A stretch of DNA of 64,000 nt, taken from the NCBI GenBank assembly GCA_000997385.1, contig LCBT01000001.1, forward strand, positions 307,663 through 371,662, in the 5' to 3' direction. The first letter of the stretch is position 1; each line of letters starts with the position of its first letter. Position numbers and translations under genes: made by a program. This DNA comes from Candidatus Daviesbacteria bacterium GW2011_GWA1_41_61 (GTDB lineage Bacteria > Patescibacteriota > Microgenomatia > Daviesbacterales > UBA10151). The notes under the pieces were generated by a model. That model searched no databases, was not told the DNA's origin, and worked only from the letters and a program-made list of their open reading frames with translations. This document shows, piece by piece, positions 11,414-25,045 of this stretch.

Positions 11414-12697
11414 CTACTGGCTGCCGTTACCGTTGGCTATTTCCATCCTTTGAATATTTGCCCCCAAACCCACTAACTTTCCTACCACATCCTCGTACCC
11501 CCTCTCAATCAACTCAGCCCGGTTAATAATGCTCTTCCCTTCAGCTACCAAAGCCGCCAAAACTAAAGCCATCCCCGCCCTAATGTCAGGTGTTTCTAAA
11601 TTCCTTCCAAAAAGTCTCGTTGGTCCGGAGATTAAAACCCGGTGCGGGTCAGCAATGGTGATATTGGCTCCCATACTGATAAGTTTATCTACAAAAAACA
11701 TCCTTGACTCATAAACCCAATCATGAAGAAGTGAGATCCCCCTTGCTTGAGTGGCCAACACTATCATTACACTCATTAGATCCGTGGGAAAACCCGGCCA
11801 AACATTAGTAATAAGTTTGGAGATGGCAGCAATCTTTTTAGCGGAAACCTTTATTACTCGCTCGCCACGAGTAATCGATACACCCATCTTTGATAAAGGC
11901 CAAATGACGGGCTCAAGATCTAAATTATGACAATTTTCTATCTCTATCTCCCCGCCTGTAATCGCTGCAGCAATAGCATAAGTCCCAAATTCTATATTAT
12001 CTGAACCAATAGTAAATTCTGTACCTCTTAATTTTTCTACGCCGTCAATAGTTAAAGTGGAGGTCCCTATACCTTCAATAGAAGCCCCCATAGAAATTAA
12101 CATTAAGCAAAGGTCGATTACATGAGGCTCACAAGCAGCGTTGCGGATAACTGTTCTCCCTTTTCTTATTACCGAGGCTAAAATTAAATTCTCTGTTCCT
12201 GTGACAGTAGCTATCTCTAAAAAGATTCTGGCATCCGACATGACATTTGTACCCTTTAATACTTTATAGTTGTGATCATTAACCGAGACCTTACAACCAA
12301 GTTGTCTAAATCCTTCTAAATGGAGGTTTATATCCCGTTTACCGATAACATCTCCTCCCGGATGAAAAAACTCTATTTTCCCTGTTCTTGCCAGCAGCGG
12401 CCCAACCAATAATATGGAAGCCCTAAGTTTACTAGCTAACTGTTGAGTTAAGACAGAATTTTTTATCTTACTGCATTTCACTTTCACTTCTTGATCGCGG
12501 GTTTCTACTTTTGCTCCAAATTGCATTAGTATTTCCGTAAGGACCCGGACATCAGAAATCATCGGCACATTTTTTAAAACTACTTCCTCCCCTGTAAGTA
12601 ATGATGCAGCCAGACAAGGTAAAATGGCATTTTTATTTCCCGAGATTTTAACTCGGCCTTCTAAAATCTTTCTTCCTTCAATGATATATCTAGTCAT
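11414..12697 (-). CDS. murA: UDP-N-acetylglucosamine 1-carboxyvinyltransferase (Cys-to-Asp variant)
   Basis: SGNKNA, LRASILL, PGGDVIGKR, PGFPTD, DIRAG, ERGYE. Confidence 0.96.
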   Translation of the reverse strand: MTRYIIEGRKILEGRVKISGNKNAILPCLAASLLTGEEVVLKNVPMISDVRVLTEILMQFGAKVETRDQEVKVKCSKIKNSVLTQQLASKLRASILLVGPLLARTGKIEFFHPGGDVIGKRDINLHLEGFRQLGCKVSVNDHNYKVLKGTNVMSDARIFLEIATVTGTENLILASVIRKGRTVIRNAACEPHVIDLCLMLISMGASIEGIGTSTLTIDGVEKLRGTEFTIGSDNIEFGTYAIAAAITGGEIEIENCHNLDLEPVIWPLSKMGVSITRGERVIKVSAKKIAAISKLITNVWPGFPTDLMSVMIVLATQARGISLLHDWVYESRMFFVDKLISMGANITIADPHRVLISGPTRLFGRNLETPDIRAGMALVLAALVAEGKSIINRAELIERGYEDVVGKLVGLGANIQRMEIANGNGSQ

Positions 12698-16421: not shown

Positions 16422-17747
16422 TTATTTAATGGTTGAAAGTCTCACATCAACTCTTTCCATATCCCTGGGAAAAAGCGATGCTTCTCTAATATTTGCTAAA
16501 CCAAGGATGTGCATCACAATGCGCTCAGAGCCAAAAGAAAAACCTCCCTCTGGGGGCAAACCGTATTTAAAAGCCTGAAGATATAGCTCACTCTTTTTTA
16601 AATCTACACCTTTCTCTTTAGCTTTTTCCACCAAAACATCATAGTTATTAATTCTTTGACCGCCTGTCAGCCATTCCGTCCCTCGGCCAATTAAATCAAA
16701 ACTTAAGGTGTATCCTGGGTCATCTGGATCTTCATAAGTATAGAAAGGTCTCTTTGACACGGGATAATGAGTCACAAAAACAAGCTCTGAACCATGCTCT
16801 TCAAGTGCCCAACGACTGATTTCCCGCTCATCTTCCGGCTCTAAATCTGGTTCTTCTCTATTATCACGACCAGTTCGTTTATAAATAATTTCCTGAGCTT
16901 CACGTAACTTTACTCGGGGCAGCTTTTCAGAAATCTGAGGAGCAGATGTCTTAAACATTTTTAATATATCTACACATTCTTTATCTACACGATCAAGAAT
17001 ATACTTAATAACATACTCCACCATATCCATTACATCTTGCCAAGATTCAATAAAACCAAACTCTCCATCTAAAGTAGTTACTTCTGTTAAGTGGCGAGTA
17101 GTTACTGAGGGCTCAGCACGTAAAGTTTTATTTACAGTAAAAACCCTTTCAAACACCCCCACCATAATTTGTTTATAAAATTGTGGGCTTTGAGCAAGAT
17201 AAGCTTTATGATCAAAATATTTCACTTCAAAAACCTCTGCCCCACCTTCAGCGGTTTGGGGAATGATCACCGGGGATTGAAATTCGGTAAAATCTTTCTT
17301 TTTAAGGGCTTCCCGGAAAGCATCAATGACTATTTCTTGCACCTTAAACACCTCTTTGACTTTAGGATGTCTTAAAGTTAAAGCACGGTAATCCAAAAGG
17401 GTTGGCAGCTGTAAATCCAGCTCTTTACCCCCCATGTCAAAGGGAAGCTCTTCGGCTTTAGATAAAACTTCTATCTTTTCTGCCTGAAGTTCAATAGTAC
17501 CTGTTTCTAAATTTGGGTTAATCAGTTTTTCCGGTCTTTGGGCAACTTTCCCTTCAATGCAGACCACATCCTGAGAATGAAGATCCCCAGCCACTTCCCC
17601 TGTAGCTACTACCTGAATTACCGCCGATCTGTCTAAAACATCAAGGAAGACTATCTTTCCATGGTCACGCCTGACCTGCACCCAACCACAGATTTTTACT
17701 TTCTCCCCAACTTTATTATTACAGTCTAAAATCAGTGCCCTCTCCAT
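16422..17747 (-). CDS. aspS: Aspartate--tRNA(Asp/Asn) ligase, archaeal-type non-discriminating
   Basis: OB fold RDHGK, AEGGA, LAQSPQFYKQ, RAEPS, GGQRI, PPEGGFSFGSER, FPRD; 441 aa with no GAD insert. Confidence 0.93.
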   Translation of the reverse strand: MERALILDCNNKVGEKVKICGWVQVRRDHGKIVFLDVLDRSAVIQVVATGEVAGDLHSQDVVCIEGKVAQRPEKLINPNLETGTIELQAEKIEVLSKAEELPFDMGGKELDLQLPTLLDYRALTLRHPKVKEVFKVQEIVIDAFREALKKKDFTEFQSPVIIPQTAEGGAEVFEVKYFDHKAYLAQSPQFYKQIMVGVFERVFTVNKTLRAEPSVTTRHLTEVTTLDGEFGFIESWQDVMDMVEYVIKYILDRVDKECVDILKMFKTSAPQISEKLPRVKLREAQEIIYKRTGRDNREEPDLEPEDEREISRWALEEHGSELVFVTHYPVSKRPFYTYEDPDDPGYTLSFDLIGRGTEWLTGGQRINNYDVLVEKAKEKGVDLKKSELYLQAFKYGLPPEGGFSFGSERIVMHILGLANIREASLFPRDMERVDVRLSTIK

Positions 17748-17756
17748 CGTGGTTTG

Positions 17757-17785
17757 ATAATAACAACTCCTACTTACCTTGGCAA
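17757..17785 (-). promoter_or_regulatory. Sigma70-type promoter of aspS
   Basis: TTGCCA-17 bp-TATTAT, ending 9 nt before the ATG. Confidence 0.6.
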
Positions 17786-17804
17786 TACTCTTAACAGAAA
17801 ACTA

Positions 17805-18053
17805 TTAGTAATATGGAGTATTCAGAGTGCTTTCCTGTACTCCGCTAATAAGTACATCTGCAAGTTGATCCACGGCTTTAGGATCTCCTTCAACACCCTT
17901 AAGCAACTCTTCCACTGCCTGCCGATAGTTGAGAACGCAAAGATTTCGAGCCTGGCTGAGCGCTGTCGCTACAGTCACCACTCTTGCATTATCTGGTTCA
18001 CCAACTTGTGGTGTTTCTTCTGACTGTCCTCTTAGATATTCTTGTTTGCACAT
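17805..18053 (-). CDS. Orphan 82-aa protein downstream of the attenuator
   Basis: Strong SD AAAGGAGGTG before ATG 18053 (MCKQEYLRG...NTPYY). Confidence 0.75.
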   Translation of the reverse strand: MCKQEYLRGQSEETPQVGEPDNARVVTVATALSQARNLCVLNYRQAVEELLKGVEGDPKAVDQLADVLISGVQESTLNTPYY

Positions 18054-18089
18054 TTTATTTACACCTCCTTTCAAGTAATTTTTAACCAC

Positions 18090-18113
18090 AAAAAAACCTC
18101 CCTTGCGGGAGGT
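18090..18113 (-). terminator. Attenuator terminator hairpin
   Basis: ACCTCCC-GCAA-GGGAGGT-TTTTTT, between the leader ORF and the orphan gene. Confidence 0.85.
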
Positions 18114-18141
18114 AGGCTTCTTTTATCCTGGAAAACTTTTT

Positions 18142-18222
18142 TTAAGTTCTCAGGACACCAACCAACCTCCCTTTAGGGGGAGTAAACCAAAAGTAAAAAA
18201 AATTTGGTTGGTTGCTTAACAT
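18142..18222 (-). CDS. Attenuator leader peptide MLSNQPNFFYFWFTPPKGRLVGVLRT (26 aa)
   Basis: Six consecutive aromatic codons; overlaps alternative hairpins; has its own promoter upstream. Confidence 0.75.
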   Translation of the reverse strand: MLSNQPNFFYFWFTPPKGRLVGVLRT

Positions 18223-18233
18223 TGACTATTAAT

Positions 18234-18263
18234 AAAATAGCAAATCTTGACAGTATCGTCAAG
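18234..18263 (-). promoter_or_regulatory. Promoter of the leader transcript, with a palindrome over the -35
   Basis: TTGACG-17 bp-TATTTT with extended TG; CTTGAC-N6-GTCAAG at 18246-18263. Confidence 0.6.
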
Positions 18264-18297
18264 TAGAATACAAACTGAGACTGCTTAATGGATAATT

Positions 18298-19734
18298 TTA
18301 ATTAAGCATATAAGCTTTTTTGATCCTTCTTTTAGCTAAAGAGGTAACCACAAAGCCTAGCCAATCCCGGCTGGGCTTTTTTTTAGGGTCTTTAGATAAA
18401 GTCACCTCTACTATATCACCATTTTTTAACTTTGTGTCCAAAGAAACTACTTTACCATTAACTTTGACCCCCATCACCTGATTCCCCATCTGAGTGTGAA
18501 TATGGTAGGCAAAATCGATAGGTGTAGCCCCAGCCGGCAAATCTTTAACATCACCTTTGGGAGTGAAACAAAAGATTCTTTCTCCAAAAAGATCTGTTTT
18601 AATGGTTTTCAAAAATTCTTTGTCGTCAGTAATCTCAGTTTGCCAATCAGCGAGTCTTTTAACCCAGTCCAGTTTTTCAGCTGAGGCAGCAAATCCTTGA
18701 GTGATTTTTTCATCAGATAAACCACTCTCTTTTTTCTCAGCATAGTTCCAGTGTGCTGCCAATCCATATTCTGCTTCCTCATGCATCTTTCTGGTTCTTA
18801 TCTGAATCTCAAAGGGCAGATCTCCCGGTCCATAGACTTTAGTATGTAAAGATTGATAACCGTTAGGTTTAGGATGGGCAATATAATCAGAAAAAGGACC
18901 GGGTAAAGGTTTAAAAAGTTTATGGACAATATCTAAAGTTTTATAACAATCTTCTGTAGTATCAACAATGATCCTCAAAGCTATCAGATCATGAATTTTA
19001 TGCAGATCTTTATTAATCTCGGCTCTAGTTAATTTAGTATAAAGAGAATAGGCATGTTTAACCCGGCTTTGAATCTCTGCCTCAATACCTTGTTGTTTTA
19101 AAGCCAGCATTAACTTGGCTTTAATTTTTAGCAAAATTTTGCCCAAATTAGTCAAATCATTTTTAACGTAAGATTTAACCCAAGTGTATTCTTCAGGATA
19201 AAGATGCATAAAAGCCAGATCCTGCATCTGCCCTCTTAACTCTCCCATTCCCAATCTTTCTGCTAAGGGAGCAAAGATCTCTAAAGCTTTTTGACCAACT
19301 TCTTTCTTTTTAGGATTCTCCACATATTGTAAAGTAGTTAAATTGTCAAAAATATCAGCCAGCTTAATTAAAACTACCCGCAAATCTTTGGCCAAAACTA
19401 AAAACATTTTTCTTAAAGATTCTATAAAGTCATCTTTCATCTCATCTTTGGGTTTAATTAACCTGAGTTTTTCAAAAGATTCCATCATTTGGGCAATATC
19501 TTCACTAAACTCTGCCTTTATATCAGCCATATCAGCAGCGCCTTCATGAATACTGTGGTGTAAGATCGCAGCAGCTAGGGTAGAAGGGTCACTTACTTTA
19601 TAACGGATTAAAGTTTCTGCCACACGAAGACAGTGATCCACCACATCTTCGCCGGAGTTTCTTTTCTTACCGGCCAAAGAAAGTTTGGCAAAATCAATAG
19701 CTTGTTTAATGATCGGATTTTCCAAGGCTTGCAT
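18298..19734 (-). CDS. RelA/SpoT-family (p)ppGpp synthetase (HD-SYNTH-TGS, no ACT domain)
   Basis: DLRVVLIKLAD, FAPLAERLG, RVKHAYS, DYIAHPKPNGYQSLHT, EIQIRT, GLAAHWNY, TPIDFAY. Confidence 0.93.
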   Translation of the reverse strand: MQALENPIIKQAIDFAKLSLAGKKRNSGEDVVDHCLRVAETLIRYKVSDPSTLAAAILHHSIHEGAADMADIKAEFSEDIAQMMESFEKLRLIKPKDEMKDDFIESLRKMFLVLAKDLRVVLIKLADIFDNLTTLQYVENPKKKEVGQKALEIFAPLAERLGMGELRGQMQDLAFMHLYPEEYTWVKSYVKNDLTNLGKILLKIKAKLMLALKQQGIEAEIQSRVKHAYSLYTKLTRAEINKDLHKIHDLIALRIIVDTTEDCYKTLDIVHKLFKPLPGPFSDYIAHPKPNGYQSLHTKVYGPGDLPFEIQIRTRKMHEEAEYGLAAHWNYAEKKESGLSDEKITQGFAASAEKLDWVKRLADWQTEITDDKEFLKTIKTDLFGERIFCFTPKGDVKDLPAGATPIDFAYHIHTQMGNQVMGVKVNGKVVSLDTKLKNGDIVEVTLSKDPKKKPSRDWLGFVVTSLAKRRIKKAYMLN

Positions 19735-24157: not shown

Positions 24158-25045
24158 CTAATTTTTCCCTTCTTTTATTGAAATTGGCCCCAAAGGAACC
24201 TCATCTTGGGGATCATCAACAAAAAAGTAAAGCACTGGCCCCTTCCTTGGTCCTTTAGCCAGTCCTAAAAAATGCATCACCTCAGGTGAACCTCCTAAAT
24301 GTTTTCCGGTCCACTCCGCCGGGCCGGCATCCCCAACGACTGCCACTACAGCCTGACCGCTTTGGGGATTCACTACTACCATTTTACGGAATTTAAAAAA
24401 ATCCCTAAACTTTCCCACATTCTCAGCAAATCCCGGAGCTAAAAAGGTCTGAACCGCCAGATAATACCTTTCCCTCTCTTTATCTTTGGCAGTAAAAGCC
24501 GCCTGGGAGGGGGCAAAATATCCCCAAGCTCCAAGTCCGGGAGCCATACCTGCAGGTCCATACATCGCCCAATCTGAAGCATTGTCGGCATGTTTAAAAA
24601 GATCATCTCCCGGGTAACGGTAAAGATGTTGCTCCCCGCCGATTAAGCCATAGGAACGGTTTAATCTGATCCCCTCAATCTCAGCAGCCACTCTAATATC
24701 TAATTTTTGGGAAACAGTTTGCCTAATTTTTTCCTCTTCTTGGGGGGTTAACTTCCCAACCTCACCCGGAACTTGATCTTTTAAAGCCTCAGCTAAAAGT
24801 TTATTTTTATCTTCAGCTTTGTTAATACTAGACCCTTGGGGGAAAGAGGCTAAACTATCAGCAACGCCGGGAAAAATCGCCGCAGCGGGAGTAGTCAAAA
24901 GCACCATCCCCCCCAGTCCTCCTATGGCCGCCCGCCGAAGAGAACTGCTATTATCTACTAACAGCTTGTCGCTTAAGGCCTTATGTTTGGCCAGCCATTT
25001 TTTTCTTAAGTGTTCATATTGAGGATTTTTTGAGTAAAACTTCAT
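24158..25045 (-). CDS. Membrane-anchored protein with a possible RlpA-like double-psi beta-barrel C-terminus
   Basis: TM segment; VVVNPQSGQAVVAVVGDAGP...LGGSPEVM resembles the DPBB VxVxDxGP motif. Confidence 0.6.
   Translation of the reverse strand: MKFYSKNPQYEHLRKKWLAKHKALSDKLLVDNSSSLRRAAIGGLGGMVLLTTPAAAIFPGVADSLASFPQGSSINKAEDKNKLLAEALKDQVPGEVGKLTPQEEEKIRQTVSQKLDIRVAAEIEGIRLNRSYGLIGGEQHLYRYPGDDLFKHADNASDWAMYGPAGMAPGLGAWGYFAPSQAAFTAKDKERERYYLAVQTFLAPGFAENVGKFRDFFKFRKMVVVNPQSGQAVVAVVGDAGPAEWTGKHLGGSPEVMHFLGLAKGPRKGPVLYFFVDDPQDEVPLGPISIKEGKN

Follow-up and report, generated by a model that had tools for sequence, protein, structure and literature searches.

A probable pheL-type leader-peptide attenuator over an orphan gene in Candidatus Daviesbacteria and its CPR relatives

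The leader attenuators trpL, ilv, leu, thr, and cys are separate RNA families. CPR bacteria are mostly uncultured, are held to be auxotrophs with little regulation, and are rich in orphan genes. The closest known systems to the element analyzed here are E. coli pheL and C. glutamicum aroR. In the accessible part of PMC3082878, pheL is listed only in gammaproteobacteria, Bacteroides, and Desulfobacterium. The aroR leader, according to the accessible parts of two reports, places mixed Phe-Tyr-Phe codons before a DAHP synthase gene, aroF (PMC4046766, PMC11802643), and was reported to respond to Phe but not to Tyr (PMC11802643). A mixed aromatic leader as such was therefore already known; what the original prediction did not recognize as described was a sensor pooling all three aromatic residues ahead of an orphan gene in a presumed auxotroph. 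Our literature searches found no attenuator in CPR bacteria, although subscription journals and supplements may hold prior entries; the accessible parts of PMC2965389 and PMC1173090 contain no CPR case.

We analyzed a window of 64,000 nt from Candidatus Daviesbacteria bacterium GW2011_GWA1_41_61 (contig LCBT01000001.1, 307,663-371,662). On its minus strand, relA is followed by an attenuator unit, an 82-aa orphan with a strong Shine-Dalgarno (SD) sequence, and an aspS-type synthetase gene (Table 1). The original prediction had placed here a promoter, a 26-codon ORF with FFYFWF, a GGGAGG segment, and a terminator, and each was found where it had been claimed. The promoter comprises a -35 element TTGACG (18262-18257), 17 nt, and a -10 element TATTTT (18239-18234) preceded by TG; the match alone is no better than chance (10 found vs. 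9.3 expected), and most homologous leaders are also preceded by similar promoters. Downstream, CCTACCTCCC at 18116-18107 (minus) is complementary to segment 2, GGGAGGTTGG, at 9 of 10 positions, the same count that had been given for this leader segment and the terminator 5′ arm. In the folds, CAACCAACC at 18214-18206 (minus) is able to lengthen the state in which segments 1 and 2 pair. The terminator hairpin spans 18113-18096 (minus), with a T run to 18090. The -35 element lies within an 18-nt inverted repeat (18246-18263) that also yields a plus-strand TTGACA without a good -10; relatives carry a back-to-back Leu-type unit at this position, and thus the repeat may be left over from a divergent promoter. 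At 478 aa, the relA/spoT-type protein is short and comprises HD, synthetase, and TGS only.

Table 1. Features of the attenuator locus, in window coordinates
Feature	Position	Strand	Basis or remark
relA/spoT-type gene upstream	18298..19734	-	Neighbor varies in relatives; outside the unit
Sigma-70-type promoter TTGACG-17-TG/TATTTT	18234..18262	-	Promoter scan; putative activity
26-codon leader ORF, no SD, ATG 11 nt past the -10 hexamer	18142..18222	-	
Sensor codons Phe-Phe-Tyr-Phe-Trp-Phe (FFYFWF)	18184..18201	-	In-frame conservation in relatives
Segment 1, ACTCCCCC, pairs with segment 2	18176..18183	-	Folds
Segment 2, antiterminator strand, GGGAGGTTGG	18162..18171	-	Covaries with terminator arm across units
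Spacer hairpin bringing segments 2 and 3 together; contains leader stop codon	18117..18161	-	MFE folds
Intrinsic terminator, segments 3:4 and T run	18090..18113	-	Compensatory changes in relatives
Shine-Dalgarno sequence of the orphan, AAAGGAGGTG	18062..18071	-	Anti-SD intact in window genome
82-aa orphan ORF: 0 Phe, 0 Trp, 4 Tyr	17805..18053	-	Three helices predicted, low confidence
aspS own promoter TTGCCA-17-TG/TATTAT	17757..17785	-	Kept at 26/29 aspS loci
aspS-type class II synthetase	16422..17747	-	Downstream of orphan

The unit is real and conserved in relatives. At least five consecutive F/Y/W codons occur in 6 of the 7,774 short ATG ORFs of the window genome, and the leader folds with z = -4.35, one of 200 shuffles being equally good. 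By pattern, generic scan, and covariance model, the unit is the sole one of its kind in the genome; a covariance model of aromatic units scores it at 80 bits and the next genome match at 22. Low-depth contig pieces from four DNA runs agree with the leader and the orphan, with no listed differences, and an assembly error is therefore unlikely; variants in leader or orphan that could be used for testing selection were absent from these four runs. The lack of aromatic biosynthesis genes noted for the region extends, by profile and tblastn searches, to the whole assembly (1.06 Mb, 99.75% complete). Neither DAHP synthase nor PDT was found in it, and tblastn returned no DHQ synthase, EPSP/shikimate kinase, DHQase/SDH, or chorismate mutase-PDT; the absence holds for these genes. 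The EPSP-family match in the assembly is a murA-like gene at 11414-12697. A T-box or metabolite riboswitch was rejected, no such Rfam family being found up to E 10 in 17600-18500. At ~24900-25010 (minus) in coordinates of contig C1, the window genome has another promoter, followed by a short hairpin leader, a GC-rich terminator, a strong SD, and a 93-aa ORF; this element has no leader ORF and no Rfam match and is possibly another kind of switch.

The gene below the unit had been called an orphan, and searches of protein, metagenome, and structure-sequence collections returned no clear homolog. It has no Pfam domain and shows no likeness to DAHP synthase. A word-index search matched the protein itself alone, and HMMER against 1.84 billion representatives gave itself and two weak repeat-protein matches, which we took as noise. 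There was no match in JGI metagenomes, no usable match in Atlas (likewise for a sister orphan), and nothing among PDB sequences. The AlphaFold model has three helices at pLDDT 62. A profile built from four orphans recovered its inputs and two relatives of one input, with a pairwise E of 0.004 to one of those, a hint that the window orphan may share a family with orphans under aromatic leaders elsewhere. Among units preselected for a 35-aa ORF, all 46 have an SD-anchored ORF of 50 aa or more, vs. 2.7% in shuffles. In each of the 30 orphan homolog pairs, both members belong to one leader class; 29 of the pairs have pN/pS <1, a measure that local alignments bias downward. Judged by these measures, the family orphans look like real genes. 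The most likely role of the window orphan would be that of an intracellular starvation-response protein. Seven aromatic leaders head small orphans that contain Cys; one such orphan family occurs in several genomes, and Atlas gave no match. At most of the 30 aspS loci, including that of the window (17757-17785), a conserved extended -10 promoter lies 6-12 nt before the start of aspS, which suggests leaderless translation.

The leader ORF and its aromatic run are conserved: orthologous leaders occupy the same locus in relatives. Across 30 related loci, the leader recurs ahead of aspS, and the gene that follows it is rarely the same. Two same-locus orthologous leaders, near-identical to that of the window and ending GLVGVLRT (L010) and GRLVDVLRT (L232), head DAHP synthase, and the Phe-rich leader of another related locus (L009) heads PDT. 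Across the 96 family genomes, 30 carry DAHP synthase (PF00793), in 31 genes, and all 31 lie under an F/Y/W leader, 29 of them directly. When 18 of these genes were taken blind to the leader, 17 were directly under an F/Y/W leader and terminator; the 18th sits, by coordinates, in an operon with the order leader-transketolase-tyrA/pheA-DAHP. The loci of the other 13 had been selected in part because they carry a unit; a leader stands directly over 12 of these genes, and the remaining gene comes second in a PDT-led operon.

We scored 166 of 171 CPR units (5 without a leader or ORF were dropped, as were 5 pattern matches inside coding genes and 56 gammaproteobacterial units; L224, whose terminator was missed by the script, was dropped from the unit counts, and its leader was read separately). 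Aromatic leaders account for 92 of the 166, 46 over aromatic genes or operons, 36 over short orphans, and 10 over longer genes, shares that are no population estimates because 16 of the 46 enzyme-headed units were fetched by their enzyme. One of the 74 nonaromatic units was scored as heading an aromatic gene, through a mis-picked ORF. The aromatic run falls in the promoter-defined ATG frame in 43 of 43 enzyme-headed units, vs. 1 and 2 for the other frames, and the runs of relatives mix the synonymous codons TTT/TTC and TAT/TAC. The aromatic leader was kept in the absence of both DAHP synthase and PDT in 25 of the 59 family genomes having it (units 48 and 72 left out; 37 and 67 added by hand), a Pfam-based count that may miss divergent enzymes, two DAHP-like genes having given no Pfam match. 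A loose aromatic pattern proved noisy, with frequent matches in the control, and served solely for picking regions.

Several neighborhoods of aromatic leaders were observed in passing. At four loci, the leader stands over a pfkB-family kinase gene, beyond which lie a divergent DAHP-like gene and further aromatic genes. Aromatic leaders at seven more loci head divergent proteins of the DAHP synthase family whose Pfam score is weak or absent; several of these lie beside tyrA-pheA fusions and chorismate mutase. At another seven, the leader is followed by an orphan or DAHP synthase and then by pheS; the aromatic unit is often located at the pheST locus.

The mutually exclusive pairings that had been proposed for the segments (1:2 / 2:3 / 3:4) are supported by folds and covariation. 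The window leader folds to -45.7 kcal/mol with the terminator enforced and to -47.5 kcal/mol with the antiterminator, a difference within 2 kcal/mol. Over 43 units, 4 of 6 terminator pairs show changes on both sides (compensatory). The arm of a unit pairs with its own upstream region over 6.57 bp, vs. 6.07 bp when swapped (maximum 6.25 in 300 swaps), and a CGGAGG partner is present in 10 of 11 units with CCTCCG arms vs. 2 of 131 with CCTCCC arms.

Folding with the codon region blocked by a ribosome, the check suggested along with the prediction, caused the window leader to switch in a cotranscriptional model in which the transcript ends before arm 4. In this model, all 42 scored gammaproteobacterial pheL/pheM controls switched, 11 pheL controls being left unscored. 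For the window unit, predicted arm capture is 1.0 at each of the six aromatic codons and ≤0.3 from codon 16. Of the CPR aromatic units, 27 of the 46 that head enzymes and 31 of the remaining 46 passed a strict switch cutoff. The predicted default with no ribosome is read-through in CPR leaders (0.74-0.82; window 1.0), whereas pheL controls gave 0.19, which is termination. When the ribosome was instead walked along the complete transcript at equilibrium, 7 of 53 gammaproteobacterial controls switched; this model, having failed its positive control, was set aside, and the folding support thus depends on the model. The window unit combines an in-frame run of control codons, a terminator with an exclusive antiterminator backed by covariation, and, as modeled, a codon placement by which a stall would free segment 2 and passage would block it. 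Coupled transcription and translation in these cells is an assumption.

We next consider the amino acid composition of the orphans, comparing 28 families under aromatic leaders with 31 under Ile/Leu/Val (ILV) leaders. Phe makes up 1.0% of aromatic-led vs. 3.2% of ILV-led orphan families (p 2e-6), and Tyr makes up 1.5% vs. 2.9% (p 0.002); Trp is not depleted overall (1.0% vs. 0.8%, p 0.85). Leu goes the other way, at 9.2% vs. 6.2% (p 0.001). Met and Asn differ weakly (0.026 and 0.018), the remaining 14 residues do not differ, and the two groups are equal in T content and length. Because the genomes are kin, the p values of these comparisons overstate. Genes free of Phe number 17 of 36 under aromatic leaders vs. 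4 of 46 under ILV leaders. A hold-out of 7 vs. 6 genes, some of which may be homologous to earlier ones, gave p 0.007 for F+Y, ~0.06 for Phe and Tyr singly, and 0.0002 for Leu. In 20 genomes with both leader kinds, F+Y is lower under the aromatic leader in 18, and Leu is higher in 16.

The bias follows the codons of the individual leader. Taking one aromatic-led orphan per family (the leader of L295 was mis-picked), Trp amounts to 0.47% with and 1.5% without a Trp codon in the leader (Fisher 0.006, rank 0.047), and Tyr amounts to 1.3% with and 3.7% without a Tyr codon (Fisher 0.0005, rank 0.011). In gene sets not collapsed by family, orphans under Leu-rich leaders (36 genes) have 5.4% Leu and 7.3% Ile, and those under Ile-rich leaders (7 genes) have 8.7% Leu and 3.6% Ile. 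Longer genes under leaders show a less clear trend. The window orphan contains 4 Tyr (4.9%) and neither Phe nor Trp; its joint lack of Phe and Trp has a chance of ~1% at background, and the case therefore rests on the family. Because the orphans are poor in the amino acids named by their switch, they are likely made when those run short; that is, they would be translated during the shortage that their leader senses. The composition bias is evidence, drawn from sequence alone, that such switches may be active over orphans. It favors sensing of Phe and Tyr generally and of Trp solely when a Trp codon is present in the leader. In the window, one sensor would pool Phe, Tyr, and Trp.

The window unit is no isolated case. 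The suggested search of CPR genomes for similar leaders and terminators revealed, by pattern scans, a class-wide family with varied downstream genes, of which the window unit is one member. A generic antiterminator-terminator pattern matched 87 of 96 family genomes (control, 1 match) and 125 of 301 class genomes (control, 2 matches; the tally includes one unpublished genome, G160). The model of aromatic units matched 86 of 96 family genomes and 17 of 150 genomes drawn from the phylum. In CPR genomes, units with Ile/Leu/Val runs head ilvB, ilvD, and cimA/leuA-type genes; units with Cys runs head CysRS and a PALP-family enzyme, which we take from its motif to be cysteine-synthase-like; a Thr-run unit heads ThrRS; and a Trp-Trp unit heads a class I W/Y synthetase. 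Nine loci represent other leader types: Cys runs stand over a methyltransferase or a PIG-L deacetylase, one run consists of Tyr only, and a 34-codon leader, which is conserved, precedes a protein of 495+ aa with no Pfam match. Some units with CCTCTC arms (L037, L042 at 1538, and the L063 type, GGAGGATT) lack a clear leader ORF; a Cys/Met PLP enzyme follows one of them, and such units may be riboswitches on the same terminator scaffold. Several records titled as Gammaproteobacteria or Saccharimonadales MAGs contain CPR-type units and neighborhoods, and their titles may be mislabeled.

A ribosome-stalling aromatic attenuator before an orphan gene in a presumed auxotroph, as put forward in the original prediction, remains the best reading, with strong support from relatives. 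We hold it highly probable that this pheL-type leader-peptide attenuator admits transcription into the 82-residue orphan only when a ribosome stalls at its Phe/Tyr/Trp codons. The regulatory mechanism would be textbook attenuation. A shortage of charged tRNA would hold the ribosome at FFYFWF and so cover segment 1, leaving GGGAGG free to capture the terminator 5′ arm and allow read-through. A ribosome moving past the Thr-Pro-Pro codons would cover segment 2, and the terminator would form at 18113-18090. Ancestrally, the switch may have controlled an aromatic biosynthesis gene at the window locus; this enzyme gene would then have been lost or replaced, the sensor being kept for small proteins that can be translated in aromatic shortage. 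In a host-dependent cell, such a sensor would report the outside supply of aromatic amino acids.

Three other readings were weighed. The unit might serve as a general sensor of translation stress, giving read-through whenever a ribosome fails to initiate at the SD-less leader or to get beyond codon 13 (through antibiotics, hibernation, or a slippery T run) rather than upon aromatic shortage specifically. Such behavior is in keeping with the predicted no-ribosome default, which is the antiterminator and not, as in pheL, the terminator, and with the model, which gives read-through for a stall at any early codon. We nevertheless consider it unlikely as the main function: codon runs fit the downstream pathway in the aromatic, Ile/Leu/Val, Cys, Thr, and Trp classes, and orphan composition tracks leader codons residue by residue. 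Stress sensing and aromatic sensing can be compatible with each other.

That the unit is instead the decaying attenuator of a lost aromatic gene, with the orphan as neutral filler, would agree with the lack of an aromatic pathway found in the window genome and with an orphan that has no clear homolog and differs between genomes. However, all segments are intact (80 bits), the leader is kept in the 25 of 59 leader-bearing family genomes lacking both enzyme families, the ORF lengths (50 aa in 46/46 units vs. 2.7% expected) and pN/pS values (<1 in 29/30 pairs) are those described above, and the composition bias requires selection; we regard decay as very improbable. A last reading makes aspS the real target, or has the hairpin merely end relA transcripts, with the leader ORF incidental. 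The relA gene does end 36 nt above the promoter, and no terminator was found between the orphan and aspS in the window, so that read-through could add to aspS mRNA. This reading seems to us extremely unlikely, given that a separate aspS promoter is preserved at 26 of 29 loci, with or without the attenuator, that the unit persists without relA and also occurs far from aspS, and that the leader has no Asp run. Retention of the aspS promoter makes the orphan the likely target.

With stalling at the aromatic codons as the preferred reading, what surprises is that these units have spread through a lineage of reduced metabolism, that they are kept above orphans, and that the bias of these orphans is residue-specific. 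The occurrence of units (87/96 family and 125/301 class genomes) suggests that amino acid supply is monitored one residue class at a time, and the leader codons would predict the inducing condition of the orphan below, providing a first handle on such genes. A tentative extension, which we hold possible but doubtful, is that Patescibacteria turned one pheL-type scaffold into a swappable amino acid sensor, kept after loss of biosynthesis to fire fast-changing small proteins that avoid the missing amino acid. Such a starvation program might serve an epibiont, at some stage of its life cycle, in exploiting its host, detaching, or going dormant, and each orphan would be marked by its leader with the inducing nutrient.

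Compared with the known systems, the CPR units most resemble gammaproteobacterial pheL-pheA and pheM-pheST, with which they share a Phe-rich leader, Phe-Thr, a C-rich segment 1, a GGGAGG segment 2, and a CCTCCC...GGGAGG-T terminator; both groups are retrieved by a single DNA pattern. Among Rfam families, RF01859 (Phe_leader) fits the CPR units best, and Leu-type units match it too; it scores the window at 25.8 and the best CPR relative at 52.4, both under the cutoff of 55, and gives 46.5 bits for Kangiella pheL and 133.8 for Pantoea pheL. Conversely, the CPR model scores 12 of 12 gammaproteobacterial pheL/pheM-type loci at 34-60 bits, although these loci were picked by pattern and are hence biased. 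Common descent with gammaproteobacterial pheL may account for the likeness, but motifs this short and low in complexity allow convergence. The two groups also differ. Whereas pheL lies upstream of pheA, the window unit heads an orphan, some relatives head PDT, and CPR targets further include DAHP synthase, DHQ synthase, and other orphans, unlike those of pheL/pheM. Tyr and Trp codons are mixed into CPR leaders, Phe, Tyr, and Trp all being present in 55 of 92, whereas Trp occurs in 2 of 56 gammaproteobacterial leaders. The CPR leader often continues through segment 2, unlike pheL, and its predicted default is read-through rather than termination. The aroR leader, whose likeness to CPR units is by description only, has three aromatic codons and no Trp, and the accessible parts of PMC4046766 and PMC11802643 describe no orphan targets for it. 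Cognate bias, by which biosynthetic enzymes contain less of the amino acid that is short when they are needed, is described in the accessible part of PMC4209129; here, it appears in small orphans and is sorted by the codons of the leader above. The trpL, ilv, leu, thr, and cys attenuators follow the same stalling logic as the CPR sister units; in contrast to them, the CPR codon-run units share one CCTCC/GGAGG scaffold across residue classes.
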